DNA of 64,000 bases, from positions 1 to 64,000 of the IMG/VR virus record IMGVR_UViG_3300033463_000029. The stretch is one strand, 5' to 3'. The first letter of the stretch is position 1, and every line of letters starts with the position of its first letter. A program made the position numbers and the translations under genes. The stretch is from a virus (taxonomy: Duplodnaviria; Caudoviricetes). The notes beneath the pieces are model-generated. The model did no database searches. It was not told where the DNA came from and saw only the letters and a list, made by a program, of their open reading frames with translations. Positions 6,205 to 52,636 of this stretch are shown here, piece after piece.

Positions 6205-7194
6205 ATGAGTATGGTTCAATGGGCAGAGCAGGAATGCCGAATCGCCTGCAAAAGAGAAAATCCAGATTATAATTTTGACAGCGACGACTTTGATTATGGT
6301 TGCAGCTGTTACAAATCCGCGCTTAAAGCATACAAATCTCTCATGGAAGATTTTTACAGCGAGGCATCATGGAATTTCACAAAACGGATACTCGAAAGAC
6401 TTATGGACAACAAGCCTCTTACTCCGATAACGGATGATGACTTTTTCATAAACGGGGAAGAGGTAGCTAAATTGAATGATAGCGAATATCTTAAAGAACG
6501 CGGATTAAAATCTGATATACAGTGTCCTAGAATGCCAAGTCTTTTCCGAAAGGAATACCTTGACGGTAGAGTAGTTTATCAGGACATCAACAGAGATTAT
6601 TTCGTGGACATCGAACACCCATCTTATACATATTCAAGCAATTCAAGTTTTCTCGATGAGATGTTTCCGATTACGATGCCTTACACACCAAAGAAAGGAA
6701 AATATGCAATTTATGCCCAAACGTTTCTTTGTGACAAAAACAATGGGGATTCTGACACAACGGGAATTCTATATGTCGTTACACCAGAGGGAGAAAAGGT
6801 TGATGTCGGCATATACATGACGGAGAAAGATAAGAAAATGGTTCGGATCAGCAAAGAAGAGTATGAGGAACTTCTCTCAAAACGCATTGACAAAGTCAGT
6901 GTGAAAGCGGCAGACCATTTGATCTGGACTTTGATTTCAAACTCAGCGTCAGATAAAGAAATTGATCGCAGAGAGATGGAATGGAGAAAACTCCCCGAAG
7001 AAGAAAAAACAAAGATAAAGAACGAACTGCTTGAAAAGTGTAAGTTCTTTGATAATCCAGATAATTGGAAATATAATGTTTTCGGAATTCATCAGTCTCT
7101 GTGCACCGGAAACAAATCAAATCTTGAAGGCGTCAAAGAACTTGAAGATATTTCTGATTTCCTACAGGAAGTTTTGAAAAAAATATCAAACTAA
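6205..7194 (+). CDS. Conserved phage hypothetical protein
   Basis: 329 aa; YGCSCYKSALKAY...KPLTPI motif. Confidence 0.7.
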   Translation: MSMVQWAEQECRIACKRENPDYNFDSDDFDYGCSCYKSALKAYKSLMEDFYSEASWNFTKRILERLMDNKPLTPITDDDFFINGEEVAKLNDSEYLKERGLKSDIQCPRMPSLFRKEYLDGRVVYQDINRDYFVDIEHPSYTYSSNSSFLDEMFPITMPYTPKKGKYAIYAQTFLCDKNNGDSDTTGILYVVTPEGEKVDVGIYMTEKDKKMVRISKEEYEELLSKRIDKVSVKAADHLIWTLISNSASDKEIDRREMEWRKLPEEEKTKIKNELLEKCKFFDNPDNWKYNVFGIHQSLCTGNKSNLEGVKELEDISDFLQEVLKKISN

Positions 7195-17877: not shown

Positions 17878-18362
17878 ACTATTTTTGTGTTAATTTCCTA
17901 TATTTTATCAACATAAACACTTCTTCCGCTTCTTTTATGAAGTGATCTTTTTCAAAGAAAGAACTGTATCTTTTGTTTGCCTCTTCTATGATTTCTTGTT
18001 CAGTTTTTATTTCTTTGCAATTAGCCGCCCAAAAATCCGCTTCCCTTCTTGCCTCAAAGCATCTTTCCTCTGTATTTTCTCTTATTTGTGCTGACCTTTT
18101 ATCAGAATACTCACTCATACATTATATGGTTCTATAAGGTAAAATTAAGTAAACCATCTTCCTTGTCCCACCTCCTTGTCCCATGTTAAGCACCATGTTA
18201 TGTTAACATTTGACAATGACAGTTCTTTGAGTTTTTTCAAAGCGTCATCGATTTCATCGAACTCATATACCTCAGCGGAACCGTTTTTCATTACATAAGG
18301 TTTACCCTCATGGATATGCCAAAAGCCGTAGATATAATATTTTCTCTTTTTTTCTTCCGGTG

Positions 18363-18617
18363 TCATAGTGATTCAATTTTGTTAATTACATCTTGAAAAG
18401 CCCATTTCTTTCCTTCACATCTTATCGTATCAACCACAATAACTGTGTCAGGGTGTGAGTAACATTCTACCGCCATTTTAAGCCACTCAAGCAGAGTATC
18501 CTTGCGGACGTATTCAATGTCACTGGATTCAATTCGTTTTGTGTTTATAGGAGAACCATCCCAATCAATATGAGTTGGAAATACATTATCAGCTATATAA
18601 ATCTTATCTGGTATCAT
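18363..18617 (-). CDS. Family D paralog (PDK...EY.RKD.LLEW...I.KIESL)
   Basis: Shares blocks with 23191-23403. Confidence 0.75.
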   Translation of the reverse strand: MIPDKIYIADNVFPTHIDWDGSPINTKRIESSDIEYVRKDTLLEWLKMAVECYSHPDTVIVVDTIRCEGKKWAFQDVINKIESL

Positions 18618-18736
18618 TGCATTACGGTTTTAATCAATTTATCCTTATAGTAGATTTCAATCTTATACCACCCGTTATAATTTTCTACTACCCTTGCAGT
18701 AATGTCCTTTGGGTCAATATCTTCTTGTGTCATAAT

Positions 18737-19063
18737 TTATTCCTCCTTTCTTGCGGTTTTGCCAAGTTCGTAAAAGTAGCGAGCAAAATTCCTAATAGCA
18801 AGACTTTGCTCTCCATTCATTGGACCAAACGCATCATCTAATAATGTGGCCTTCTTGTTTTTTAATTCTTTATCCAGATCCACCTCCGGCTGATCCTGTT
18901 GTAGAGAGGAGACAATTGAAAGGATTTTATTGTATCCATTTAATTCTGCTTCCCATTCTTTATAGTTAGCCGCATAAAAAAGTTTAATCATTAATGATTT
19001 AAGCTCATTTTTCAACTTTTCTATTTTGCCAATCAGTTTCTCTGAGTCAATATATTTGTTCAT
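18737..19063 (-). CDS. Family B paralog (YID.EKL...SLQQ.QP..DL...AR.F.E.G..ARK)
   Basis: Shares blocks with 19277-19699 and 24433-24981. Confidence 0.8.
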   Translation of the reverse strand: MNKYIDSEKLIGKIEKLKNELKSLMIKLFYAANYKEWEAELNGYNKILSIVSSLQQDQPEVDLDKELKNKKATLLDDAFGPMNGEQSLAIRNFARYFYELGKTARKEE

Positions 19064-19276
19064 TTTTCGAACCATTTCAAAGTTTCATAATCAATTTGGA
19101 TTAAAACGGAATCCGTGCCGTTTCTATAATCCGATGCAACCATAGACAGTGTACCGTTGGAATACATATTTCCCCTGTCAACTTGAACATTTATTGCGCA
19201 GTCGTGACCGATGTCCGTGCGAATTTCCTGTAGCCTGTCAATAAGCCCGTCGAGAGTCATTAATTTATTTTCCATT

Positions 19277-19699
19277 TTAATTCTTCTTATAAACCTCTTC
19301 TTCAACTAAACTTTGTTCATCCCACGTACCTTCATCTTCGAAAGTATAAACCCATCCATCTTCTTCGTCAAACTCAACGTTTACAATTTTACCGAGAGGA
19401 TACTCTCCTTCTTCATTTGAAGTACAGATGTAATGTGCAAGAACATCACCGACATTCCACCTCGGCTTTCTCCCATGAACATATTCAGTGGACAGATAAC
19501 CGTATTCTGGTTGCTCATCCGGCTGCTCCTGCTGGAGAGAGGTGATGATGGAAATAAGTTCGTTGAGTGTTTTTATTTCCACGTCTCTTTTTATTGATGC
19601 CCCAAATTCCGCCTCAATAAAAGGGCATTCATCAATACTCTTTTTTCGCCTTTCTATCTCGGCAACTAACTTTTCCGCGTCAATGTATTTGCACTTCAT
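19277..19699 (-). CDS. Family B N-half fused to an unrelated C-terminal domain
   Basis: YIDAEKL...SLQQEQP, then diverges. Confidence 0.75.
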   Translation of the reverse strand: MKCKYIDAEKLVAEIERRKKSIDECPFIEAEFGASIKRDVEIKTLNELISIITSLQQEQPDEQPEYGYLSTEYVHGRKPRWNVGDVLAHYICTSNEEGEYPLGKIVNVEFDEEDGWVYTFEDEGTWDEQSLVEEEVYKKN

Positions 19700-19701
19700 T
19701 T

Positions 19702-20277
19702 TTAAATCATTAGTTGTTTCTTGATATAATTTACTTTATCGATTACCGGATAAGACAGCGATCTATCGTATGTTCCATCTGTTCTCGCGAACGAGTAATC
19801 TATAGCATCCAGAAGTAACATAAGTAGATCTCGATAGTTTAACAATTGTATATTGTAAATAAGTTCGATGAGTTTCTTTGCCCACTTATCTGTGTCTGAC
19901 TCTATTTCGCTATCGTCCTTTCTGTTGGCGGCATCTTGCAGATACTGAAGCATAAAAGATTTAAACATTTCTAAATCTACAACAGGACGCTTATGTCCAT
20001 AAAGATATTCTTCAACTGTAGGACCAACATCATTCCACTTTTCCAAATCTTTCCACTCCTTTTCAAGTTGTTCCTTTGGAGTGGTTGCCAGATGGTGCCT
20101 TAGCTGTTCAACCAAATCCACCTTTGGTTTCTCGTCGTTGGCGTCTTTCTTCCGAACAATCACTTTACCGTCTTTGATCTCAGCCTCCATTCCTTCAGGG
20201 ATTGTATATTCAAACCCACAAAGTTCAGAGTCATGTGCCCCAAACGGCACGTCGATTTTATCTTTCATAATAATCAA
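19702..20277 (-). CDS. Mosaic hypothetical protein (PFGA.DSEL...IPEGMEAEIKDG; VDL modules)
   Basis: Two PxVDL motifs like those in family B. Confidence 0.65.
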   Translation of the reverse strand: MIIMKDKIDVPFGAHDSELCGFEYTIPEGMEAEIKDGKVIVRKKDANDEKPKVDLVEQLRHHLATTPKEQLEKEWKDLEKWNDVGPTVEEYLYGHKRPVVDLEMFKSFMLQYLQDAANRKDDSEIESDTDKWAKKLIELIYNIQLLNYRDLLMLLLDAIDYSFARTDGTYDRSLSYPVIDKVNYIKKQLMI

Positions 20278-20488
20278 GTATAAAGTTCGTAAATTCTATA
20301 AACTCGTCTTGGATCAATATCAAGCCAGCAACCAAGTTCTTCGCTGTAGACCTCAACAAGATTGCTATCCGGTTCCCACCTTGGCCATCTTATAAGCTTT
20401 TTTCGAAGATGGGCTTCGTCTTTAAACGGATGCATATACAAAACTAGAGCTTTTCCTTTGTTCCAAATGTGCTTTTTACGTTTCATAT

Positions 20489-20510
20489 CTAAATCAAATT
20501 TTCAAAACAA
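20489..20510 (-). repeat. Orphan family-A 3' end (encodes CFENLI*) behind an unrelated cargo gene
   Basis: + strand ctaaatcaaattttcaaaacaa versus family-A ctaaatcaaattttcaagacaa. Confidence 0.85.
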
Positions 20511-20897
20511 TTATCCTCCAAACTCCTTTTTAAGTTCCTCATACTGAGCCTTACGCTTTTCCTTCTCTTGGACAGCCTTTTCTTTGTTTCTCTTTTCTTG
20601 CTCAGCTTCCCATTCCTTGTTTTCCATTTCAACGATTTTGAGAAGTTTATCATTGGACATTGTGAGGAAGTCTGTCGGGAAATCTCCGTAATGCTCTTCA
20701 TGTCCACCATATCTCCAATACTCATCACCTCTCCATGCGACAGAATCACCGTCTATACTGAATCTCTCTGCATAGCAGATATCAGAGCACTCTCCGTGAC
20801 GTTTCTTGCTGTCCTTTAAGATATTGCAAACACGTTCACATTCGTTTGTAATTTTTTCGCTCAATTCGACATACTGTGTTAATTCTTCTTTTGTCAT
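20511..20897 (-). CDS. Cargo hypothetical protein between A1 and an orphan A end
   Basis: 128-aa ORF starting 2 bp after the A1 stop. Confidence 0.7.
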   Translation of the reverse strand: MTKEELTQYVELSEKITNECERVCNILKDSKKRHGECSDICYAERFSIDGDSVAWRGDEYWRYGGHEEHYGDFPTDFLTMSNDKLLKIVEMENKEWEAEQEKRNKEKAVQEKEKRKAQYEELKKEFGG

Positions 20898-20899
20898 AA

Positions 20900-21319
20900 C
20901 TAAATCAAATTTTTAAGGCAATACCTAATAGCTCTATCATATCCGCTTTCAGGATTTTCATAAACCCACCCTTGGGAAAAAGTTTCATTTGTTTTGGCGA
21001 CAACTATCTTAATGTCCCAAAGAAACTTTTCGTGATCAAGTATGCTGTCTATGATTGGTATGATGACAATTCCCTTCTCGTCCCTCAACCACTTCATTGC
21101 CATTTGAAGAGTAGGGGCGGAAATCATAATCGGACTCCATTCACATTCTGAATTAGTGTAAGTAAGTATCTGTTCACCATACCCCTCACCACAAAAAACT
21201 CCAAGTGAAGATACAAGTTGTAACTCTCCATCGTGGTAAACAGAAATACATTTTTCATCAAACCCCTTTTCCTTAAGGAGTTTCGCAGTCTCGCAACTTA
21301 CATAATCTTCTGTAATCAT
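20900..21319 (-). CDS. Family A copy 1
   Basis: MITEDYVSCETAKLLKEKGFD / APTLQMAMKWLR / AIRYCLKNLI. Confidence 0.9.
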   Translation of the reverse strand: MITEDYVSCETAKLLKEKGFDEKCISVYHDGELQLVSSLGVFCGEGYGEQILTYTNSECEWSPIMISAPTLQMAMKWLRDEKGIVIIPIIDSILDHEKFLWDIKIVVAKTNETFSQGWVYENPESGYDRAIRYCLKNLI

Positions 21320-21504
21320 ACTAAATTCTCAATATTAGAAATCGCTTTACGAATTTTTCTTACCATGTATTTTTCGCGGCTCAATTTGTTTTTATCTAAT
21401 GCCGTAAAAGATTCTTTGCTACGCAAACGTTCAACAATTGCCTCATGACGTTGTAGGGAAGCACGTTTTTTCTCTAGCTGTTCTGCTTTTTGAATGTCAT
21501 CCAT
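21316..21504 (-). CDS. Cargo hypothetical protein between A2 and A1
   Basis: 62 aa, abuts both A genes. Confidence 0.65.
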   Translation of the reverse strand: MDDIQKAEQLEKKRASLQRHEAIVERLRSKESFTALDKNKLSREKYMVRKIRKAISNIENLV

Positions 21505-21507
21505 AAT

Positions 21508-21903
21508 CTAAATCAAATTTTCAAGACAATACTTTATCGCTGCTTCGCAGGCTTCTTCATATTTTTCCCATGTTTTTGCAAACAGTTTATGATACTCAGG
21601 ATGTTTTTCCTGATATGGAATATGATACTCTCCATTAAACCAATAATTGAATATGTAACTTTCAGCTTTGCCTGTAAGTTTTTCAAAAGAAAGTGGACCT
21701 ACCGCTATATGAAAGCCATAGTTATCCCTCAACCACTTCATTGCCATTTGGAGAGTTGGAGCATTGGTTTGTCCATAATGTTTTGCACAATGGGGAAGAA
21801 ACTCAAGAGTATAATTATCATATGAGTTTGTGACTCTACCATCAAACCCTTTCTCTTTCAAGAGTTTGGCTGTTTCAAATGATACGTAATCTTCTGTGAT
21901 CAT
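21508..21903 (-). CDS. Family A copy 2
   Basis: MITEDYVSFETAKLLKEKGFD / APTLQMAMKWLR / EEACEAAIKYCLENLI. Confidence 0.9.
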   Translation of the reverse strand: MITEDYVSFETAKLLKEKGFDGRVTNSYDNYTLEFLPHCAKHYGQTNAPTLQMAMKWLRDNYGFHIAVGPLSFEKLTGKAESYIFNYWFNGEYHIPYQEKHPEYHKLFAKTWEKYEEACEAAIKYCLENLI

Positions 21904-21905
21904 AT

Positions 21906-22217
21906 CTATTTTTCTATATCAAACAACATATCTTCTGTCACATTGTAACCCCCGTCCGTATCCACACAACAGATTTCAAAGGGGTTTTCACACTCCTGTA
22001 TTTTTTGAATCAGTTCTTGTTTCAGTTCATTGATTCTTTCCTGAGTGAAATACTTTTTCCTGACAGTTTCTTCTGCTGCATCAAGTTCTTCATCAGTAGA
22101 AACAAACCCCTCTGAAGGGAAAGGTTTTGTATAGATGGTTATGTCATTGATTCTTGACAAATCCCATTTCAAGTTGCAGTCAAACACAAAGACATCATTA
22201 TCTACAAATTTCTTCAT
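21906..22217 (-). CDS. Cargo hypothetical protein between A3 and A2
   Basis: 103 aa with 2-bp gaps to both A genes. Confidence 0.7.
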   Translation of the reverse strand: MKKFVDNDVFVFDCNLKWDLSRINDITIYTKPFPSEGFVSTDEELDAAEETVRKKYFTQERINELKQELIQKIQECENPFEICCVDTDGGYNVTEDMLFDIEK

Positions 22218-22219
22218 AT

Positions 22220-22627
22220 CTAAATCAAATTTTCAAGACAATATTTAATAGCGGCGTCGACGGCTTGTTCATGGGAGTCAAATCCATTTCCCCCAATTTT
22301 GCTTGTTTTTGATTTAATCACAATGTCTTTGCTGTTATAGGTAAATTGAATTGTTGGCATATAATTTTCCGCACCAATGCAATCAACCATTATATGAAGA
22401 TTGTGAACTTTCCTCAGCCATTTTGTTGCCATTTGAAGAGTTGGGGCAGAGCATATAAACTTGTAATTTTCTTCAAACCTATTATGGTCGTCAAATTCAA
22501 TACTTGTATATTTTTCACCCCCAAATTGTGAGGTATATTCAGAATACCACACTTCACAATGGCAGTCAAACCCTTTCTCTTTCAAGAGTTTGGCTATTTC
22601 AAAGCTAACGTAATCTTCTGTGATCAT
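22220..22627 (-). CDS. Family A copy 3
   Basis: MITEDYVSFEIAKLLKEKGFD / APTLQMATKWLR / AAIKYCLENLI. Confidence 0.9.
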   Translation of the reverse strand: MITEDYVSFEIAKLLKEKGFDCHCEVWYSEYTSQFGGEKYTSIEFDDHNRFEENYKFICSAPTLQMATKWLRKVHNLHIMVDCIGAENYMPTIQFTYNSKDIVIKSKTSKIGGNGFDSHEQAVDAAIKYCLENLI

Positions 22628-22847
22628 AGTTAAAAAGAGTCTATATCATAATAAACGTGAGCCATCATCTTAGATATTTCTCCATCTCTGTCGAGAGAGA
22701 AAAACTCTTCCATGTCGGCTATTATTTCCTCTTTAGTGTGAGTTTTCTTATACTCTTCCCACTTGTCAATGGCTTCAGTCCAATGTTTAATTGTTTCCAT
22801 AATTACTCCTGTTTTATATTAAGCAAGATCCATTTCTTTTTTCTTAA

Positions 22848-22881
22848 TGCAAAGGTAATACAAAAAATAATATAAAACAAA
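22848..22881 (-). promoter_or_regulatory. Bacteroidota-type promoter (TACCTTTG) upstream of the A3-A1 block
   Basis: -7 element at 22850-22857 with TTTG at the -33 position. Confidence 0.75.
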
Positions 22882-23190
22882 TTTTCCAGAAACTTTTTTG
22901 AAAGCGCGATAGTCAATGTGATATCAGTTAGTATTATAATTTTAATTTTTGGGCATTATATATCTGTTCTCCAAAGTTATTCTATTTCAATTAAGTTATC
23001 AGAGAGTTTGATATCAAGGAAATTCGATTGCAATTTGCTGAAAATACCTTCTTTAAGAATGCCAAACTGAATATTAAAGTCATTACCAATCGTAACACAC
23101 ATACCTGTTCCTTCCCACTCTGGTTTCATATAATATTTCCCATATTGTATATTGGTAATATTCATACTATTTTCTTTGTCGCTTCTTTTG

Positions 23191-23403
23191 TCATAGCGAT
23201 TCGATTTTGTCAATTAACCCACGGAAGTATTCGTCATGTATCTTTGTGTAGTCGGAGTGAACTTCGACCATTCTCTTATGATTCTCTTTCGCCCACTCAA
23301 GCAGAGCGTCCTTGCGGATATACTCTGTCTCATCCTCAATGCCGAAGATTCCAATGTCGGAAAATAGAGCCTCATTAAATACAAGTTTGTCCGGTGCTTT
23401 CAT
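23191..23403 (-). CDS. Family D paralog
   Basis: APDK...EYIRKDALLEW...LIDKIESL. Confidence 0.75.
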   Translation of the reverse strand: MKAPDKLVFNEALFSDIGIFGIEDETEYIRKDALLEWAKENHKRMVEVHSDYTKIHDEYFRGLIDKIESL

Positions 23404-23424
23404 ATCTGTTTCTCCTTTCTTGCG

Positions 23425-23661
23425 TTAAGCATATTTTAATCGCATTCTTTCAACCCAAGCGAGTGCATCTTCTCTTGAATCAAATTCTTCATTTTCAAGA
23501 ACCCATTCTAACCATTCCTCCGTGTTGCAAAATGGACAAGGGTCATCACCTCCGATTGTTAAAACTCCATTTTCATAAGAATCTAAATCCCATAGATAAC
23601 CATCTATACAAGTGGCATCCGGATATGAAGCGCCAAAATGTGGGAATTGTATATTACACAT
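23425..23661 (-). CDS. Cys-motif phage protein (FGASYPDATCIDGYLWDLDS...CPFCN)
   Basis: Motif; likely ATG at 23661. Confidence 0.65.
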   Translation of the reverse strand: MCNIQFPHFGASYPDATCIDGYLWDLDSYENGVLTIGGDDPCPFCNTEEWLEWVLENEEFDSREDALAWVERMRLKYA

Positions 23662-24265
23662 AGCTATTACTTTTTGTGTTTTAACCGCCAATCAAGTCCT
23701 TAACTTCTGACAGTAAATCGTGTGCCTGTTCAAGATTATCTTGAAACCACGGTTCATACTCTTCAGGCTCAATAGCATCCCTAATCCTTGCGAGTTCGAG
23801 GGATATTTCTTCGACAAGAGATATTAAATTTTCAATTTTCATATCTATTTCTCCTTTCTTGCGTTTTTACCAATTATTGTATCATTAGACATATTAACTA
23901 ATTACCAGTCTGCATAAAGGCAATCTATGTAGTCTTTTGGGTTGTACCATCTGTTCGTTGAGTCTTTAATATATCCTTTATTCAAAAACTCCCTTTCTTT
24001 TTCTTTCTCTTTTTCTTTATTATGAGAAGTTTGTTCTTGATTTGTGCTATAATCATTCATATCAGGAGTTGGTACATCTCCTGTTCCTAAACATACACCG
24101 TAATCATTCATATTTTATTTCTCCTTTCTTGTATCAGTCTTCAATATAAACATACCACCACATAAACTGCCTTGTGTATCCATTGTTAAACCACCAACAG
24201 AAATCACGGCGCATCCCAAACTCCACTTTGCCAATCTTGAATCTAAAGAGATAATCACCCATATC

Positions 24266-24436
24266 TTATTCCTCCGTTCTTGAGTTAAGTTCCTCTATTC
24301 TTTTGAGCCAATATTTTTTTCTTTTCTTATTCCCCGTTGCCATCGCAACACCGAGATAATAGTGGGCATCAGCAAGCCTATGGGATATATCATCATTTGT
24401 GACGATTGTTTCCCCGTCTTTATGTTCAATAATCAT
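24266..24436 (-). CDS. 56-aa ORF ending LNSRTEE (family-B-like tail); not in the ORF track
   Basis: ATG overlaps the stop of 24433-24981; read manually. Confidence 0.55.
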   Translation of the reverse strand: MIIEHKDGETIVTNDDISHRLADAHYYLGVAMATGNKKRKKYWLKRIEELNSRTEE

Positions 24437-24981
24437 TTCTTTCTTGCGTTAAGATGAATTGATCCCCATTCAGCGAAGTGACGGGCCATTGCATCTAATG
24501 TGGTTTCGTTCAAATACTCTCTTTCATCTGTAAACGGAACTTTATACTTGATTATCTCCCTATCCAAATCCGCCTCCGACTGATCCTGATCCATCCAATC
24601 GGCATCATCGTCGTAAGTCCACCACCCATTTTCTTTGAGATAACTCCTTATTTCCGTGAGACGATTTTCCGGTATGGCATGAATGTAATTAAGCAAATTC
24701 TCCCTATAGCATTTGCCTTCATCATAAACATAATCATCTAAAACAATGGTTTCCCGAAGAGGTTTGAACGATTGCAACTTACAAATAGCATAGTTTACTC
24801 TCGTTCTTTTGTTCGGAAGTTTATTTTCCTCTGGCTGCTCCTGCTGGAGAGAGTCGATGAAGTCAAGCACCATCATCTTCATATCTTCACGACCATCATT
24901 ATAGTCGGCACTTATTTGCGGAATCAATCTAATACTTTCTATTCCAGCAATCAGTTTTTCTGCGTCAATGTATCTATTCAT
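24433..24981 (-). CDS. Family B paralog with a long insert between two QP/QS-E-x-DL modules
   Basis: YIDAEKL...SLQQEQP...QDQSEADLDRE...ARHFAEWG..LNARKK. Confidence 0.8.
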   Translation of the reverse strand: MNRYIDAEKLIAGIESIRLIPQISADYNDGREDMKMMVLDFIDSLQQEQPEENKLPNKRTRVNYAICKLQSFKPLRETIVLDDYVYDEGKCYRENLLNYIHAIPENRLTEIRSYLKENGWWTYDDDADWMDQDQSEADLDREIIKYKVPFTDEREYLNETTLDAMARHFAEWGSIHLNARKK

Positions 24982-25210
24982 ATTAAGTCTTGATAATATA
25001 CTTCAACCATGTCTTGTAAATTGTTATGTCCGCGATATGTCCGCACCCAGTACAGGAATAATTTATGTTCAATATCATCCCCAAATCTATCGCGTATTAT
25101 TTGTTTTGCGACCTCCTTTGGTTTCCTATTGCGAAACATTGCATAATCCCAATCTTGCCCGCAAAGATGAAACCTACTATAAGGTCCTCTCCTACTGACT
25201 CGTCTTATGT

Positions 25211-26257
25211 TCATAGACTATATAATTTATTGAGGTCATCATATAGTGTATTAAGAACCAAATCATCGTCACTTCTACCATACTCCGCCAAATATCCAAT
25301 GCCCTTTTTCAAAGCAATCATCTGCTCCTCACTGGGTTTCCAATGAGGCTGGTCGAGATTGGCTTCTTTTGCCGGATAAGGAGTTTCTTTACTCTTGATA
25401 TCATAGCCTCCACCCAGCACTTCATCAGGGTTAATAATGTAATCAAATTGTCCCGGTTCATCTTTGATTTTATAGCCAATAACACCGCATGGAAATTCCA
25501 TTGTTCCGTACACCTTGTAAATTTTTCCAGCATACTTTATTTTCATAGGTTCACTTTCTTGCTTTGGCTGAAGATTGAACCTTTCGGGAAGGGATTTGAG
25601 GAAATCCATTTGATTATCCGTTAGCATAGCATCATCTTGCGTAACTTCAAGCTTTCCTATTATTGCGTCGTAGTAATCCTTATCCCCATCGCTCCACTCT
25701 GCGGGCTTCAATTCCAGCTTAGCCGCATTCAAGAGCTCAGCCGAATGTTCTTTAGCCCACTGTGCCACATCTACTTCTTCTCCGTGTAAATATTGTTGCC
25801 ACCCGTCGCTAAATGCAGAAAAGAGCACGCTTTCAAAATAAGACAGTTCTGTCTCTTCGTTATCAATCTCCGTTGACTTCTGTTCTGAACGATACATTTC
25901 CGCTAATTCGCCATTATCATCCATTATACCAGCTGATTTAAGAAATTTTATTGCAGCTTCTTTATTTTTAGTTATGTCTTTGACAACATCTTCAATAGAC
26001 TTCTTTTGTTTTTCGAAGTAGGCAATCCCCCATTTATAAGCCTCAATATCTTTTTGCCTGCTGCATCCTGCTGCATCTTGTTCTTCTGCCCCCTTAAGAG
26101 AAACCTTTAGACAATCAACAAGACGTTTCCTTATCCTCTCGTCCTCACTCTCTATAGTCACGAGACCAAGGGCATGCAGTGCCTCTAAATCTTCTTCATC
26201 TAAAGCCCATTTATCAAAACGGCTTCTAACTCTTTCTATCGCTTCTTTTGTTTTCAT
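25211..26257 (-). CDS. Multi-module mosaic protein (ESEDERIRK, ELSYFE, AEWSDGD, WKPSEEQM modules)
   Basis: 348 aa; modules shared with genes at 38-43 kb. Confidence 0.75.
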   Translation of the reverse strand: MKTKEAIERVRSRFDKWALDEEDLEALHALGLVTIESEDERIRKRLVDCLKVSLKGAEEQDAAGCSRQKDIEAYKWGIAYFEKQKKSIEDVVKDITKNKEAAIKFLKSAGIMDDNGELAEMYRSEQKSTEIDNEETELSYFESVLFSAFSDGWQQYLHGEEVDVAQWAKEHSAELLNAAKLELKPAEWSDGDKDYYDAIIGKLEVTQDDAMLTDNQMDFLKSLPERFNLQPKQESEPMKIKYAGKIYKVYGTMEFPCGVIGYKIKDEPGQFDYIINPDEVLGGGYDIKSKETPYPAKEANLDQPHWKPSEEQMIALKKGIGYLAEYGRSDDDLVLNTLYDDLNKLYSL

Positions 26258-26259
26258 AA

Positions 26260-26721
26260 TTAAATCAAATTTTCAAGACAATACTTTATCGCTGATTCAC
26301 AGGCTTGTTCATAAGTGGCAAACTCGCAATATGTCCCTCTTTTGATATTATCTTCAAATGGGTGATACGACTTATCCTTATCGTTATTGTCTATAATCAA
26401 TGCAGTATACGCCTTAGGACCAGCCTTTCCAATAATAATATCTATATTATGCACATCCCTTAACCACTTCATTGCCATCTGAAGAGTAGGAGCCAAATAT
26501 CCTTCAACCTTATTATTAAGGTTATATTCATAGGCATATTGCTTAGCAGCAGCATCAACCGATTCCCTGTTAACAACTGTTTCACCTTCAACAAACCATG
26601 GTGCCCCCACAAGAGTTTGCGAATCATCATGTGATTCCCACACTTTATAGCATGGTCCATCAAACCCCTTTTCTTTAAGGAGTTTAGCCGTTTCAAAACT
26701 AACGTAGTCTTCTGTAATCAT
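26260..26721 (-). CDS. Family A copy 4
   Basis: Same three constant blocks. Confidence 0.9.
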   Translation of the reverse strand: MITEDYVSFETAKLLKEKGFDGPCYKVWESHDDSQTLVGAPWFVEGETVVNRESVDAAAKQYAYEYNLNNKVEGYLAPTLQMAMKWLRDVHNIDIIIGKAGPKAYTALIIDNNDKDKSYHPFEDNIKRGTYCEFATYEQACESAIKYCLENLI

Positions 26722-27529
26722 AATTATTTTGCATAAAAATTTATATACGGTTCTATACTAACAATTCCATAAAAAGGTTTCTTTATTCCATTCTTTTCAT
26801 CAGAAAAAGTTCCCGGAATCACCTTCATTAAAAACCCCTTCTCGCTAGTACCATCAGCCCATTCATATGGGTCTTCACAATCAATCTTGTTTAAATGCTG
26901 TTTCACAATCTCTGACACTATATGGGCATCAAAGTCAAAGGGGTATTTCTTCCACTCTTCATCATCACCCCATCCAAGACAGTATTTTCCATCTTTTGTT
27001 ACTTGGTAGGAAATGCCACTCTTGCCTATTCCGTGCATATCTATGGCGAATTTGATTGTCGGCTCCAATTGATCCATTGTGCCAGACACTTCAAAAACCT
27101 GTTCGCTTGAAAACATAATCTATTTACATTTTATTTTTTCTATTGTAACAATTGTTTCATGACATTTTTTGCAAATATAACAATTCGCTTGAAATTCAGG
27201 ATGATGCATCATTGGCGTCGGCAACAAGTAGTCGTAGTTTTCTCCAGTCTTGTTATGCCAATACTCAGCACCTTGAACCCATTCGTGCTTACAAGGAAAT
27301 AACCAATATCTTATTTTTCTTAATATTGACATCTGGCTATATTTCTTCATCGGTGTCCGATATCTTGCCGTAGTCTCCGTCTAATACATGGTTACATTCT
27401 TCCGAGATATCCTCAACCGTACATTGTGTAAATGCATCAGCATTATAATTTTTATTATTAATCAATAAATCGCATTTATGAACAATATATTTCATCAGCG
27501 ATAATAGTTCTTTTCGAGTCATATATACT

Positions 27530-27967
27530 TCATCTCATTTTTTCAAGCAAATGTATGATCGCATCTTCTTCCGCTTCCTCCGGCGTGTCGAATCCTTTCA
27601 CATTATAACAGGTTGATTCGTCGCACCATTTTACCGTTTCTGTGTTTACCATTACCCAATAATACTTCGCAATGTTAAACTTGTTCGATATACTATGGTT
27701 TGTGATTCTGATTTCAATATGAACATTATATTTTTCCCTCAACCATTTCTTTACCCTTTGCACATTTGGGGCATAGCATAAAAACTTATAAGATTCATTA
27801 AATCTATTTCTATCATCGAATTGGATATTGATGTATTTTCTGTCTCCTGAAGGATCACCTCCCCATGCTGACGTGTATTCAGCATACCATATTTTACAAG
27901 GTTCATTAAACCCATTCTCTTTGAGGAGTTTAGCAATTTCAAAGCTAACGTGGTTTTCTGTAGTCAT
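27530..27967 (-). CDS. Family A copy 5 (divergent)
   Basis: MTTENHVSFEIAKLLKENGFN / APNVQRVKKWLR / EEAEEDAI. Confidence 0.85.
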   Translation of the reverse strand: MTTENHVSFEIAKLLKENGFNEPCKIWYAEYTSAWGGDPSGDRKYINIQFDDRNRFNESYKFLCYAPNVQRVKKWLREKYNVHIEIRITNHSISNKFNIAKYYWVMVNTETVKWCDESTCYNVKGFDTPEEAEEDAIIHLLEKMR

Positions 27968-27981
27968 AATTTAAATCAAAT

Positions 27982-28218
27982 TTATCTTGTAATATTATCG
28001 TCACGCTTTCCCCATAATTTACGCTTGAATGTTTCAACCTCGTCTTTATTGGTTGCAGTTAAAGCCATTATTAATGCTATAGTATTAACCAAAGGTAATA
28101 TTAGAACAATTACAGATATCGGGCTTGGGTCAATATTTCTGTATGCATACGTGACAGCTAAAACTAATACGCTTAGGAGATAAATTACTAATCCTATTCC
28201 AAATATTAATGGTATCAT
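27982..28218 (-). CDS. Cargo membrane protein followed by an orphan A 3' stub (27971-27983)
   Basis: Two hydrophobic helices; ttaaatcaaattt follows its stop. Confidence 0.65.
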   Translation of the reverse strand: MIPLIFGIGLVIYLLSVLVLAVTYAYRNIDPSPISVIVLILPLVNTIALIMALTATNKDEVETFKRKLWGKRDDNITR

Positions 28219-28220
28219 AA

Positions 28221-28625
28221 TTAAATCAATTTTTCAAGACAATATTTTATTGCTGCTTCACATGCTTTTTCAAAAGATGTTTCATCACAAATGGCTACGC
28301 AGTAATAGTCATCAACATCTTCTGTATGATATAGGCTGGACTTCCGTTTAACCTTATATATGTCAGCTGTTATCCAATAATAGTCGGTAAAACTCAGTCT
28401 CGGATGAATAGCGATGAACAAATGATGTTCTTCTCTCAACCACTTCATCGCCATTTGAAGGGTTGGGCACATCACAGAAGATAGAGCACAGTCGGAATTT
28501 GACATCATTTCACCGTTCTCGTGTATTTCCCCAGTACCGCCATACCAAACGCGACATAATTCATCAAACCCCTTTTCCTTCAGGAGTTTGGCTGTTTCAA
28601 AACTCACATAATCTTCTGTAATCAT
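28221..28625 (-). CDS. Family A copy 6
   Basis: Same three constant blocks. Confidence 0.9.
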   Translation of the reverse strand: MITEDYVSFETAKLLKEKGFDELCRVWYGGTGEIHENGEMMSNSDCALSSVMCPTLQMAMKWLREEHHLFIAIHPRLSFTDYYWITADIYKVKRKSSLYHTEDVDDYYCVAICDETSFEKACEAAIKYCLEKLI

Positions 28626-28633
28626 TTCACAAT

Positions 28634-29026
28634 TTAATCTTTATCGATCCATAATCCATACTTCTTTGTGAAGTCATCGAACAGTTTTTCAATAACTTTA
28701 CCGAATACATGATAGTGGAAATTATCTGCTTCTTTAGAAGGCTTCGGACGATTATCGTATCCTTCAAACTTATGTTCATAAAGGATTGTTCTTACCTCCT
28801 GAATTACATTTGCATCTATAATGAACTGTTCGTAATCAAATCCGGGTTCATTGAATTTATCCTTCAGAAACCACGTAAGACCATCAACACAAGGAAGGCA
28901 ATCTATTTCACTATACCATTCTTCTTTGTTTTTCTCACTCTGTTTCTGATAATATTCAATGTCAAACATAACAAAACCCCTTGTGTTTTGATTATCTTTT
29001 GGTGTGTATCCTAAATAATATGTCAT
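28634..29026 (-). CDS. Cargo hypothetical protein between A7/A-remnant and A6
   Basis: 130-aa ORF. Confidence 0.7.
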   Translation of the reverse strand: MTYYLGYTPKDNQNTRGFVMFDIEYYQKQSEKNKEEWYSEIDCLPCVDGLTWFLKDKFNEPGFDYEQFIIDANVIQEVRTILYEHKFEGYDNRPKPSKEADNFHYHVFGKVIEKLFDDFTKKYGLWIDKD

Positions 29027-29053
29027 TTGTTTCTGAGTTTAAAAATTGAAAAG

Positions 29054-29086
29054 CTAATCAAAACTAACGTAATCTTCAGTTATCAC
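29054..29086 (-). pseudogene. Orphan family-A 5' end (VITEDYVSFD*)
   Basis: GTG ATA ACT GAA GAT TAC GTT AGT TTT GAT TAG, 2 bp after the A7 stop. Confidence 0.85.
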
Positions 29087-29088
29087 AT

Positions 29089-29421
29089 CTAAATCAAATT
29101 TTCAAGGCAATATTTAATAGCCGCTTCGCAGGCTTCTTCGTAGGTAGGATATGAGTCAAGAGTATCAAATGGTAATCGTTTATCCTTAAATATTAGGACT
29201 GAGTAACCATTTTTTCTATCAGGAGTCACTGATGTATCAATGTTATGGACGTTCCTCAGCCACTTCATCGCCATCTGAATAGTGGGAGCATATACACCGT
29301 CCGGAGACTCCTGATCATAATCAGGTTCAGGAAAGAACTTCATAGTTTTGCATTCCCAGTCAAACCCCTTTTCCTTCATGAGTTTGGCGGTCTCGAAACT
29401 AACATGGTCTTCTATTATCAT
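29089..29421 (-). CDS. Family A copy 7
   Basis: MIIEDHVSFETAKLMKEKGFD / APTIQMAMKWLR / EEACEAAIKYCLENLI. Confidence 0.9.
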   Translation of the reverse strand: MIIEDHVSFETAKLMKEKGFDWECKTMKFFPEPDYDQESPDGVYAPTIQMAMKWLRNVHNIDTSVTPDRKNGYSVLIFKDKRLPFDTLDSYPTYEEACEAAIKYCLENLI

Positions 29422-29605
29422 TGGTCTTCGTTTTTTAATTTATGCCACACTTCAGACACCTTCTTAAAATCCTCATCATTCAATGTCCAAACTGCATATT
29501 CAAACAACAATTTATTTTTGTTTGGGACCAATGCTATCACCCTTTCGACATCAACTTCACATTCACCGTATGGGTCGAATGTGACCGTAACAATTCTATT
29601 CATAT

Positions 29606-30028
29606 CTATTCAGTTTTAGTTTTATACATTCCTTCCTTTGCTTCAAGAGCAAGACCCATAGGAATAAGTCCACGATGGTCAAAATGATGGGAGTTAAGAA
29701 ACTCTTCCTTATGGGTTACAGGGGTAAATTTATATTTTTTTCCTGCCCACACAAACGATTTTTCATCTTCCAGACAAGCATCGCAGTATTCCACCCATTC
29801 TTTACTGGTCATAGTTGACATCGAGCGAAGATAAGGCTTCACCTCTTCAATAAGGGGAGAACCCGATGTCATTGACATGAACGGCTTGAGTACAGTGACT
29901 CTACCGAAACCGATATCGATTATATTGTAATCTTCGCCATGCCACTGGACCATAAGTCCATAATACGGCAACCTTGCACATAAATCGATATAAAGAAGAT
30001 CCTTATCTTCGTCAGTCATCTTTTTCAT
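29606..30028 (-). CDS. Family C paralog
   Basis: DLCARLPY...KPYLRSMSTMT...HFDHRGLIPMGLALEAKEGMYK. Confidence 0.8.
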   Translation of the reverse strand: MKKMTDEDKDLLYIDLCARLPYYGLMVQWHGEDYNIIDIGFGRVTVLKPFMSMTSGSPLIEEVKPYLRSMSTMTSKEWVEYCDACLEDEKSFVWAGKKYKFTPVTHKEEFLNSHHFDHRGLIPMGLALEAKEGMYKTKTE

Positions 30029-30743
30029 TTTCTTTAAGTTTTATCGGTTCACCGTTCTTGACAGCTTCAATCATATCAAGAACTATCGCCGTTTCAACAA
30101 ACCCACCAACTGGTATTCCGCTGCACAAATTATCATATATCTCACCAAAGTCTTCTCCGTAAGCCGCTATACACTGTTCTCTGAGGCTTGGCTTTCGTTT
30201 AAACAAGTCTTTTATTTTCTTTATTATGCTCATACTAAATGCATTTTTGATTTTTCAACACAAATATCAAATGATTATTCTAAAATTATAGGTTCGATAT
30301 AATGATAATAATCCATAAAATACTTCTTATGAAGAAACACCCGCATTATTATAGGCTCTCCGGAATAAGCGAAGTCCATTTCAAACAGTTTCTCCCCGCT
30401 CTCCGTGTCCACAACTGCATATATTCCGATCAAACTTCCATCGTTTAATTCGATCAGGGTGTCAAGATTTTTTGATATGTATATTTTATCTTCAATGTTG
30501 TCAATGAAAATAAACTCTTTTGCTTTCTCTTTATCCATATTTAAACTTTTTTGCTATGAAATTTACATCGTGTTCCATCTTTTGATAATGAGCCTGCGCT
30601 TCTTGCAGAAATCATTCTAAACATAGACTTAACATTACAGACAAGAACTTTTTTCACTTCTCTTCTGCACTTCAACCTGCTCTGATTGTCAACCCTCCAA
30701 TAACAATCTTTGCATATGAAATCTAGTTTTGCCATATCCGAGA

Positions 30744-31178
30744 TTACTTATACATCTGTTCTGGAGCTTTGATTGCGAATCCTTTTTCGATCCATCCGCG
30801 ATAATCGAGACGATGCTTGTTATAAAAATCTATTTCAAACGCACTTGCCGCAGCACCTATTATTGTATGACCAGACTCTTCCGACTCCAAATGTTTAAGC
30901 TCAATCTCAAGAACTTGTTTAAACTCGTATTCTTCTTCATCTGTTATACTAGACAGCGGTCTAAGATACATTTTAACAGTAGCACCACTGTCAATAAATT
31001 CGCAAACATCATCAATGCTAAAATCTTGGCACATATCTCCTTTCGCGTAACCTCCAACGACGCCTTCTATTATGCGTTCATCGAGCGGGGAGTTTGGGTC
31101 ATATACTTGTATATTGACTCCGTTTGCCAACCGAGCACAAAGATCTATTATAAAAATCTCCTTATCCTCTTTTGTCAT
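30744..31178 (-). CDS. Family C paralog (divergent)
   Basis: DLCARL...YLRPLSSIT...LDYRGWIEKGFAIKAPEQMYK. Confidence 0.75.
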   Translation of the reverse strand: MTKEDKEIFIIDLCARLANGVNIQVYDPNSPLDERIIEGVVGGYAKGDMCQDFSIDDVCEFIDSGATVKMYLRPLSSITDEEEYEFKQVLEIELKHLESEESGHTIIGAAASAFEIDFYNKHRLDYRGWIEKGFAIKAPEQMYK

Positions 31179-32344
31179 AATGTGAAATCTTTTCTTTTAG
31201 TTCCAAAAGTTCATTCTTTGATTTTGTAAGTCTGTCTACTTCCGGAATCAACTCATTAAGTTTTTCATTTATTTCTTTACTGATGGTATCAACCCTGTTT
31301 TTCCTATATTCTTCCTCGCTTGACGCTGGGGTTAACCAGAAATAAGTTGTACCATAAGTCTTTTTGTTAAACGCCTGCAATTCCAGCGTTCCATTTTCCT
31401 CATATGTATAACACTCCGCCATCTCCAAATCATACCCTTCTTCTGTAATCTTATCAGCAGACACATACCTGTCGACAAACATCTTCAATTCATCTGATGC
31501 AAGTCTTAAATCAATACTATCGAGAATACTTTTGTCCCAATCCCTCCTCTTATTATATTCTTCTACAAATACCTTTACTTTTTCTTTCATATTAATAAAT
31601 GCCTATTTTTAAATTACATTGCGTCTGGATCTCCACCATCGTTGGCGATGCCTGAAATAAACTCTACTGCACCATTATAAAAATTTCTGTCGTCAATACA
31701 GCTTTTCTTGACGACATATAAGCTTCCGGCGAAACTGAATAGCATTAAATCGTTTCCGAATGCCTTCCATTTTTTCGCTAATCTTTTTAAAGAATCGATT
31801 AGCTTGCATTCTTCACTGCTACAGGGCGTTCCGTCACCAGCTTTATATTTTATTTCGTTCTCCATTATGCAACAATTAATTACAATTTTGTTTAAAACGG
31901 CAATTCTTCATTGTCAATCTCACCAGATTCCAGCATTTTGTCATGCATTTCACAAATTTTTAACAATTCTGGATCCATTCCATTCATTTCCATATCCGCA
32001 TAGCTTTCACACATCTCCAGAAGTTTTTTCTCATAATCAGGATCATTGTATGGAATCAAGTCACAGAAATGAGTTTTTGCATACTCTATGAGAAGTTCTC
32101 TCTCATTTGTCGTATCCATCATTCGCCGTGCTTATGTTTGAAATAATCAATTGCGACGGAGCCAAGAAATATTCCAATAACCGTTTCTCCGTCTGGTTCT
32201 TTTCCTGAAATCCACGCCAAAAGCGCTGTGAAAAGAATCGCCAACAGAAGGTAAATAAAGAACTCAAGATAAGGTTTAAATTTGTCAATCATATTCGTAT
32301 ATTTTTAATCTGTTGCAAATATACGAAATGTTTTTTATAAAAAC

Positions 32345-51531: not shown

Positions 51532-51542
51532 CTCGCCATTTT
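51512..51542. terminator. Bidirectional intrinsic terminator
   Basis: AAAATGGCGAGC-caattta-GCTCGCCATTTT. Confidence 0.85.
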
Positions 51543-52636
51543 TAATCCGAATAAGTTTTGAAGTAATTGTCTATGACGACAACCGGAGTTCCTTTATCCC
51601 CAGACCCAGACATCAGGTCCATCAATGATGCGATCTGGTCTCTCATCTGTCTTGGAGTAGTTCCTTCTGAAGCCATATTCCCGATAAGGTTCTTCTCCTT
51701 CTCCCTGATTTCTTTCTTGATGGCTTCATTCAGCTCATCCCCATTCAAATCACCATACTTGTCGTCAGCGAAAGCCTTTATTTTGATTTCGTTCGCTGTT
51801 CCAAGAAGAATGTCTTCATCAGTAAATGCTGGCATTGTTACTGGATCAGCGAACTCCCAAATCTCACCAACAGGGGAACAGAAGCAGCCGTCTCCATAAA
51901 CACAAACAATAACATCTACGCCGAGTCTCGTTTTTATTACATCCTTAAGGTCGCAGCAAACGCCGAGAGCATATCCACGGCTTGGGAACAACTTAAGTTT
52001 TTCTTCCGTAGCTTTGTTCGAACCAAGAAGACCGTACTCACAGCGATCATCGAAAATGTCAGCCAAGGTGAAATAGTTTCCTTCAGCAACAAGAGCAAAT
52101 CCGGGTCTGTGCTTAAAATCATGAAGACCGCAATAAAGAATCTTCTTTACCTCGGTTTCTTCGACAGCGTCTTCATATGTTCTGTAAAACTTAACGGTAC
52201 AGTTCTCTGCTTCGCATATTTCTTTATAATAGTTCTGAATGTCAACGCCGGTAAACGGGTTGATGCCTGATGGGTTGCCAACTTCATCAAAATCTGGAGC
52301 TATGACCGTTAAAGAATCTGCATATCTCGCGATTCCTTTAAGAATCATAGAAAACCTGTTTCTGGAATAGATTGGCTTTGCGACAACAAGATTTCTGTCA
52401 TCTGTTCCGTACCTTTTTTCAAGTTCCTTTGCGATTTCATCAACCGTAACGTAATTCCCCTGTGCTCTGGCGACAACGGATTCCGTTATTCCAATGATAG
52501 TTTTGTCGTGAAGGTCAACCCCAGCACGCATAAGGGAATCATAAACTGTCTTTACAACATTATCTCCCTCTCTCATAATCGGTGTCCTCACGCCGACGCT
52601 GACGACGCCGACATTGTTGTTTTCGGTGTTAATCAT
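51542..52636 (-). CDS. CofE-like (F420-0:gamma-glutamyl ligase family) protein
   Basis: GVRTPI.REGD, GITESVVARAQGN, GTTPR...D...SL.DL.SGSGDKGTPVV. Confidence 0.85.
   Translation of the reverse strand: MINTENNNVGVVSVGVRTPIMREGDNVVKTVYDSLMRAGVDLHDKTIIGITESVVARAQGNYVTVDEIAKELEKRYGTDDRNLVVAKPIYSRNRFSMILKGIARYADSLTVIAPDFDEVGNPSGINPFTGVDIQNYYKEICEAENCTVKFYRTYEDAVEETEVKKILYCGLHDFKHRPGFALVAEGNYFTLADIFDDRCEYGLLGSNKATEEKLKLFPSRGYALGVCCDLKDVIKTRLGVDVIVCVYGDGCFCSPVGEIWEFADPVTMPAFTDEDILLGTANEIKIKAFADDKYGDLNGDELNEAIKKEIREKEKNLIGNMASEGTTPRQMRDQIASLMDLMSGSGDKGTPVVVIDNYFKTYSD

Follow-up and report, generated by a model that had tools for sequence, protein, structure and literature searches.

Results

We identified an array of seven paralogous genes, here called family A, which alternate with unrelated small genes (cargo genes) on the minus strand between positions 20489 and 29421 of the virus record IMGVR_UViG_3300033463_000029 (Caudoviricetes). 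The stretch of DNA analysed, referred to below as the window, is the first 64 kb of this 135-kb IMG/VR record. Each A gene (A1 to A7, named by coordinate) consists of three constant blocks (N, M and C) and two hypervariable slots (V1 and V2). Comparison with related loci suggests that this is likely to be a hyperplastic accessory region, in which seven genes of phrog_12005 and their neighbours exchange modules at the constant blocks by general recombination, without a dedicated enzyme.

Exchange at the constant blocks

We compared the array to a set of 75 related loci (labelled L001 etc.) fetched from IMG/VR, mostly contigs of 100-410 kb from ruminant-gut samples. In these loci 160 family-A copies were counted, and 122 copies were used for the analyses of codons and of V1 and V2. 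Pairwise identities of V1 and V2 were found to be uncorrelated (r = 0.06): where V1 was ≥ 70% identical, V2 was < 40% identical in 37 of 40 pairs, and where V2 was ≥ 70% identical, the same was true of V1 in 50 of 53 pairs. There were 87 V1 types and 85 V2 types, and 24 of the 26 V1 clusters with multiple members paired with V2 types which were all different. V1 and V2 therefore assort independently.

Steps in identity were found at the block edges. At the nucleotide (nt) level A4 was 91% identical to L020 in V1 and 33% identical in V2, with 81-91% identity over N-V1-M (L020:6864-7325; ratio of non-synonymous to synonymous substitution rates, dN/dS, 0.08), and A7 was 83-90% identical to L068 over M-V2-C (90% in V2) and 35% identical in V1. 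For A6, V2 was 70% identical to L013:1011-1430 and V1 only 25%. The V1 of A1 was 100% and 91% identical in amino acids (aa) to those of L002 and L001, both of which carry an unrelated V2, and its V2 was 72-82% identical to those of L008, L004 and L003, all of which carry an unrelated V1. The 62-aa cargo gene (21316-21504) was 90% identical to L007 at the nt level; the blocks on either side of it were also similar (C 84%, N 83%), whereas identity was only 33% in the V2 and 35% in the V1 beyond them. For the 103-aa cargo gene (21906-22217), nt identity to L020:6553-6864 was 91% (dN/dS 0.20); this identity breaks off within the N block of the following A gene, where L020 joins an A4-type V1. Stretches shared at approximately 90% nt identity end at constant blocks; each spans a single slot, or else a cargo gene together with the C and N blocks on either side, and beside them identity drops to approximately 33%. 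The dN/dS values of the shared modules ranged from 0.08 to 0.24, and the slots and cargo genes are therefore real coding sequence.

When all loci were compared against all, 106 end points of high-identity matches fell in A genes or next to them, and 84 of these lay in constant blocks or abutted them. Of the end points inside A genes, 49 of 71 fell in N, M or C, where block length would predict 41% (binomial p = 2.4e-6). Sub-modules of the array are also covered, at approximately 95-97% identity, by contigs of other cattle studies, which diverge at block edges; one at approximately 97% covers positions 27791-28466 (M-V2-C of A6, a 78-aa cargo gene, a stub and the N end of A5) and diverges in the M block of A6. 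In contigs of four other cattle studies, joints link constant blocks of different copies; as contigs of other family members would produce such a pattern too, these joints were not counted as rearrangements of this phage.

These comparisons of assembled contigs show V1, V2 and cargo behaving as modules that are exchanged independently of one another, and support recombination at the constant blocks. A preliminary description of this DNA had proposed that units could be gained, lost or reordered by recombination at these blocks; that units have been gained, lost and re-paired there is borne out by the step profiles, the end-point enrichment, the assortment of V1 and V2 and the orphan block ends described below. 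It had also taken an A gene plus its cargo as the unit of exchange; the unit is rather any segment between two blocks, whether V1, V2 or cargo.

Layout of the array

The array had been described as seven family-A copies in the order A7-(5' stub)-cargo-A6-cargo-(3' stub)-A5-three cargo genes-A4 ... A3-cargo-A2-cargo-A1-cargo-(3' stub), with tight junctions and mutually unrelated cargo. All of this holds: the seven minus-strand paralogues and their order were recovered within 20489-29421, gaps at the junctions are mostly -4 to +8 nt and the cargo genes are unrelated when compared among themselves. No cargo gene matched any Pfam or PHROG family with a known function. The A repeat units are protein-coding genes of 330-460 nt with irregular spacing (188 to 3632 nt), and the proteins are 28-48% identical to one another. 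Common to the copies are the N block MITEDYVSFETAKLLKEKGFD, the M block APTLQMAMKWLR and the C block AIKYCLENLI, which is followed by the stop codon. A 23-nt 3' element had seven matches at ≤ 3 mismatches, compared to 0 expected in shuffles; these are six A-gene ends and one orphan. As a correction to the preliminary description, A5 is divergent and does not carry this element.

In transcription order, A7 (29089-29421, 110 aa; phrog_12005 E 5.9e-15) is followed directly after its stop codon by an orphan A 5' stub (29056-29088), an orphan N-block match which reads GTG-ITEDYVSFD-stop in the sequence. Next are a 130-aa cargo gene (28634-29026), which belongs to no known family and had no homologue in the 75 related loci, A6 (28221-28625, 134 aa; phrog_12005) and a 78-aa cargo gene (27982-28218) encoding a hydrophobic, probable membrane protein. 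A probable orphan A 3' stub of 13 nt (AAATTTGATTTAA, 27973-27985) stands 3 nt before the start codon of A5; it is short and is assigned by its position, and the spacing of this junction is that of directly tandem A-A pairs in L001. A5 itself (27530-27967, 145 aa; phrog_12005 E 1.1e-12) has a V1 of the same type as A3 (52%) and L044 (61%) and an unrelated V2. Three cargo genes of 61, 76 and 130 aa follow (26724-27522), of which the largest (130 aa) has counterparts of 60-70% aa identity immediately upstream of an A gene in L073, L014 and L013, and the smallest (61 aa) is seen again downstream of A genes in L071 and L059.

A4 (26260-26721, 153 aa; phrog_12005) is separated from A3 by approximately 11 small or unknown genes (22630-26257), including a 348-aa gene (25211-26257), with a second junction repeat and one long non-coding gap. 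A3 (22220-22627, 135 aa; phrog_12005 E 2.2e-15) is the copy which was modelled. It is followed by the 103-aa cargo gene, A2 (21508-21903, 131 aa; phrog_12005), the 62-aa cargo gene, A1 (20900-21319, 139 aa; phrog_12005), a 128-aa cargo gene (20511-20897) with a weak match to phrog_31358 (unknown function) and an orphan A 3' stub (20490-20512, 21 of 23 nt), which lies after the stop codon of this cargo gene and before the start codon that follows. Orphan C-block ends before start codons recur in other loci, including L013, L014, L046, L054 and L056. The C-terminus of the 62-aa cargo protein (KAISNIENLV) and that of its homologue in L054 (...IENLI*) both resemble the A C block, and by this likeness the gene may be a chimera retaining an A C-terminus.

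The whole array had been placed under one promoter. This is doubtful, and a single promoter is unlikely: at 22857, within the only long gap (22801-23190), there is a Bacteroidota-type -7 box, TACCTTTG. Terminator-like sites were no more frequent than in shuffles.

Constraint on the constant blocks

The 3' element had been reported as nearly invariant, including at synonymous positions. Its presence in six copies stands; its near-invariance does not extend to the family, as in the 122 copies its Leu, Ile, Asn and Cys codons vary and three stop codons are used. We measured synonymous conservation per block and found an entropy of 0.76 (N), 0.71 (M) and 0.73 (C) of the codon-usage expectation, which agrees with constraint on the protein and gives the C block no special place. 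Immediately upstream of the 3' element, the codons for Ala, Ile and Lys are synonymously saturated. As synonymous codons vary in all three blocks, it is mainly selection on the protein that maintains these blocks.

The sharing of synonymous codons within one genome compared to between genomes was 0.61 vs 0.57 for the N block, 0.55 vs 0.53 for the M block and 0.67 vs 0.62 for the C block, so that in this test for concerted evolution the within-genome excess was only marginal. As within-genome sharing barely exceeds sharing between genomes, the seven copies are old paralogues which have not been recently homogenised.

There is a residual signal at the end of the gene: the last six A codons prefer A/T-ending codons well beyond genome usage (GAA 101 vs GAG 3; ATT in 100 of 112 Ile codons; AAT 85 vs AAC 18). 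Together with unstructured junctions, this bias would be consistent with the gene end serving, in a secondary role, to initiate translation of the gene that follows, and such a role could explain why stubs survive before start codons.

Distribution and predicted structure of family A

All seven copies matched phrog_12005, a PHROG of unknown function, with E values of 1e-9 to 2e-15 over profile positions 2-127 of 137 (2-97 only for A5). No Pfam family matched the A proteins, and a profile search of the sequences in PDB gave nothing below E 0.06. The family is very large: a profile search retrieved at least 7,999 clusters at 90% identity, and among the matches listed none was informatively named. 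In IMG/VR we found 291 stretches with family A, mostly on contigs of 100-410 kb. In collections of prokaryote genomes the family occurs mainly on large contigs filed under rumen metagenome-assembled genomes (MAGs). Several A-carrying contigs of 280-410 kb (in the range L076-L096) are filed as bacterial MAGs of Bacteroidales, Firmicutes and Bacilli, and are probably mis-binned contigs of jumbo phages. L096, whose best-segment match in the scan of genome collections was 85%, shares no nt stretch of ≥ 100 nt with the array. Single distant copies were seen in Bacteroides gallinarum DSM 18171 (L091) and on the chromosome of Arachidicoccus ginsenosidivorans (L095), where they possibly lie in prophages. 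A member in L049 (8713-9444) carries a C-terminal fusion to DUF6794 (E 3e-24).

Many loci have head-to-tail arrays; L001 holds six copies in such an array and L070 four. Of the 73 pairs of neighbouring A genes, including the six in the window, 25 abut directly, 26 are 100-700 nt apart and the rest are further apart. Alternation with cargo is therefore one end of a spectrum and not the defining layout, since a third of the pairs (25 of 73) lack intervening cargo.

An AlphaFold2 model of A3, made from 122 sequences, had a mean predicted local distance difference test (pLDDT) score of 81.8 and a predicted template-modelling score (pTM) of 0.77, with the constant helices above 90 pLDDT. In this model the constant blocks form three helices (residues 9-17, 64-75 and 119-134), and V1 and V2 form strands and loops between them, so that the A protein is predicted to be a small alpha/beta protein. 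Residues 60-135 have an alpha-beta-beta-beta-alpha arrangement with a weak likeness to the double-stranded RNA-binding domain (dsRBD; VIA-align Z 5-6, root-mean-square deviation 2.5-3.0 Å over 61-68 residues). The best E value of Foldseek against dsRBD was only 0.1, and we treat this modelled likeness as a common arrangement and not as a family assignment. Foldseek with the A3 model gave no match in PDB at E ≤ 0.001, structure matches in BFVD were all uncharacterised phage proteins and neighbours in the ESM Atlas were unnamed viral clusters. The constant helices might form a common scaffold or docking face, and the variable sheet might carry diverse binding specificities, perhaps against host factors or defences.

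Source of the DNA

CheckV estimated the completeness of the 135-kb record at approximately 25%. The DNA of the window is also present in bovine gut metagenomes, and the record belongs to a cattle-rumen jumbo phage with a probable host in Bacteroidota. Megablast of positions 20000-30000 of the window against GenBank phages gave no match. The genetic code was taken to be standard, because open reading frames (ORFs) become hardly longer when TAG is read as sense, the A genes end with TAA, TAG or TGA at one same position and the GC content of the window is 37.7%. ORFs were longer with TGA or TAA read as sense than with TAG.

Other features of the window

The second junction repeat, in minus-strand sense CAAGAAAGGAGAAATAGATATG with GGAG, was found in four copies (23407, 23846, 24116 and 24267), each just before the start of a tiny gene. 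The nt match to L014 at 24290-24108 (87%) ends at two copies of this repeat. A 42-aa gene (24134-24262) had 93-95% protein identity to genes in L062 and L014. The 140-aa gene at 29606-30028, for which neither Pfam nor PHROG gave a match, belongs to another expanded family; it has 116 ORF matches in the 75 related loci, frequently close to A genes. Three paralogues of a further family, B (18737-19075, 19277-19699 and 24433-24981), have an N-terminal block KYIDAEKL...SLQQEQPE in common, and loose ends of contigs from other samples fall at this conserved block (24833 and 24867).

In the same accessory region, a 329-aa protein (6205-7194) has an N-terminal Tad3 domain (type I Thoeris inhibitor, E 1.2e-16) and is a candidate anti-defence gene. 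Elsewhere in the window are a Thg1-like guanylyltransferase-NUDIX fusion (53134-54360), an F420-0:gamma-glutamyl-ligase-like protein (51542-52636) and a homologue of Hsp70/DnaK which runs off the end of the window (62266-63999).

Discussion

The constant blocks are repeated both inside the genome and in co-circulating phages, and they delimit the homology that phages share. We propose that the exchanges are made by general homologous recombination that tolerates mismatches, acting on paralogues as well as on co-infecting phages, and not by a dedicated site-specific enzyme. With a C block on one side and an N block on the other, a cargo gene could then enter any A-A junction, or replace what stands there, by double crossover. 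We take the orphan block ends as debris of such events; the stubs need at least one non-homologous event and were perhaps retained as the upstream region of the next gene.

Several points weigh against this reading. The constant blocks are only approximately 65-88% identical in DNA over 48-63 nt, which is short and diverged for homologous recombination; it should be noted that phage recombinases can recombine diverged sequences (PMC3945230). The comparison rests on diverged phages rather than on insertions and deletions between strains, and BLAST matches pass through conserved blocks by construction, so that end points place a crossover only in or at a block. Exchange among the seven copies is not recent or frequent, because their within-genome synonymous likeness is barely above that between genomes. 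No recombinase was found in the 135-kb fragment, which is uninformative as this is only approximately 25% of the genome; the same applies to the search for RecA, which found none in this quarter of the genome. The fold matches of the A protein are weak (Z 5-6), and its role as a binder is putative.

An ordinary tandem array could arise by duplication and divergence of paralogues, with ORFans inserted randomly by illegitimate recombination and the blocks playing no part. The pure head-to-tail arrays of the related loci (six copies in L001, four in L070) would suit such an origin, as would the age of the copies, whose synonymous identity within a genome is about that between genomes, and the orphan stubs, which require at least one non-homologous end. 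However, divergence alone cannot yield uncorrelated histories of V1 and V2, nor steps from 90% to 33% identity at block edges, nor an enrichment of end points in blocks, and we consider this origin unlikely. It is also possible, though we think it doubtful, that the 3' end is conserved mainly as a region for initiation or re-initiation of translation of the downstream gene, a function which would contribute alongside recombination and would not replace it. The A/T-ending bias of the last six codons after three saturated codons points this way, and folding of the junctions does not exceed that of shuffles and mostly falls below it. Stubs lie 2-4 nt before ATG, with the spacing of intact junctions, and the second junction repeat with its GGAG precedes the tiny genes at 23407-24282. 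Yet constraint on the C block equals that on N and M, which precede no start codon, and array-final and single-copy A genes keep their C-terminus even without a close following gene.

The preliminary description likened the A gene to a CRISPR repeat or an integron attC. In such a capture system the 3' element or the C/N junction would be the site of a specific enzyme, for example the tyrosine recombinase at 1-519, which would move cassettes of A plus cargo under one promoter. The cargo genes are indeed tightly packed in one orientation, a conserved 3' element stands before downstream starts, orphan copies flank cargo and a Phage_integrase fragment lies within the window. This fragment is, however, 20 kb away at the contig edge and is the sole integrase-family ORF; no integrase-like gene was found within 18000-32000, in agreement with the earlier statement that no dedicated recombinase lies inside the array. 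Eight junction sequences, sampled on both strands, folded no better than shuffles (z -0.1 to +1.0), and because the junctions do not fold as single strands there is no attC-type hairpin, nor anything like a palindromic CRISPR repeat. The likeness fails further in that the blocks are coding, under purifying selection and synonymously variable family-wide, with three stop codons in use at the 3' element; breakpoints occur in three different blocks, one of which (M) lies in mid-gene; 25 of the 73 neighbouring pairs have no cargo; and there is another promoter-like box inside the array. We therefore regard enzymatic capture of this kind as exceedingly unlikely. Gene conversion driven by homing endonucleases, in which endonuclease genes in the slots cut the conserved blocks of other copies and co-convert the flanking modules, is also highly unlikely. 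Conserved blocks would be good targets, but no cargo gene matches a nuclease family, and six longer or divergent family members from other loci have no endonuclease domain (one has the C-terminal DUF6794). The 135-kb fragment held no GIY-YIG or HNH_3 match, which, for a fragment only, is uninformative.

General recombination at the constant blocks thus remains the reading we prefer. A more speculative extension, which we put forward tentatively and think rather improbable as a whole, is that the C/N junction of tandem A genes acts as a portable, integrase-free landing pad. Genes with a C end and an N start would become mobile cassettes, possibly via small circles, and the A proteins would be a two-slot combinatorial family of binders against host factors or defences. 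If this were true, rumen jumbo phages would carry a coding-sequence-based analogue of the integron, maintained since the scaffold gene is useful in itself.

The accessory regions of jumbo phages consist mostly of genes with unknown function and their turnover is poorly understood. Here a single family, with its at least 7,999 clusters, supplies dozens of equivalent recombination joints per genome, and the comparisons show exchange at these joints both of its own two variable segments and of foreign neighbouring genes. This offers a concrete route for gene flow among large rumen phages, and a combinatorially diversified small protein is a candidate host-interaction or anti-defence family. The constant blocks also break metagenome assemblies and confuse binning, with several carriers being filed as bacterial MAGs.

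Comparison with known systems

The preliminary description knew of no named system with this layout, but named analogues do exist. Of the known processes, the nearest is the modular shuffling by promoter-early stem-loops (PeSL), and of the known protein designs that of gp38. PeSL shuffling takes place in the hyperplastic regions of T4-type phages, where cassettes carry an intergenic early promoter and a terminator stem-loop, and mini-circles have been physically shown (Arbiol et al. 2010, PMC2839356; Comeau et al. 2014, PMC4122927). In both cases a short conserved repeat in an accessory region flanks ORFans, boundaries of gain, loss and replacement fall at the repeats, the cassettes are small and of unknown function and recombination between repeats is the proposed driver. 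Our array has such repeats flanking ORFans and such exchange boundaries. It differs in that the repeats are coding blocks which do not fold and which also reshuffle their own protein, and in that it is known from assembled contigs alone.

The gp38 adhesins of T2/T6-type phages have hypervariable segments between conserved glycine-rich motifs (Trojet et al. 2011, PMC3157838). They share with family A the design of a small phage protein in which conserved core motifs alternate with interchangeable hypervariable segments, a likeness of architecture only and not of homology. Unlike multi-copy family A, with its two slots set between helix-coding blocks and its place among early or accessory genes, gp38 is a tail-fibre adhesin present in one copy and built of four segments and glycine-rich motifs. 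The two are not related in sequence.

Exchange at short, imperfectly conserved sequences flanking non-homologous modules is also a feature of relaxed homologous recombination, from which the mosaicism of phages arises (De Paepe et al. 2014, PMC3945230). Such exchange concerns single-copy genes or intergenic linkers of temperate phages, whereas here one family gives dozens of joints per genome. The modular theory of lambdoid phages likewise has boundary or linker sequences which flank modules, and both the likeness and the difference apply to these linkers as well.

In integrons, where IntI recombines attC with attI, promoterless and unrelated small genes also stand in one orientation with a recurring element between them. 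We found no IntI-type recombinase with attI and Pc next to the array and no folded attC-like site; the recurring element here is a coding gene of 330-460 nt, with breakpoints in three blocks. CRISPR repeats are non-coding, approximately 21-48 nt long and regular in period, with unique spacers of about their own length, unlike the coding and irregularly spaced A units. The "genomic accordions" of poxviruses and the multigene families (MGF) of African swine fever virus are expanded families in variable regions, and they resemble family A as tandem arrays of paralogues in accessory regions which are thought to serve host interaction. To our knowledge, these families do not reassort two internal slots or swap interleaved foreign genes at conserved blocks. 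The present array differs in that its repeats are coding blocks of a multi-copy family and in that protein segments and neighbouring genes alike are reshuffled at the same joints; the principle itself is known.

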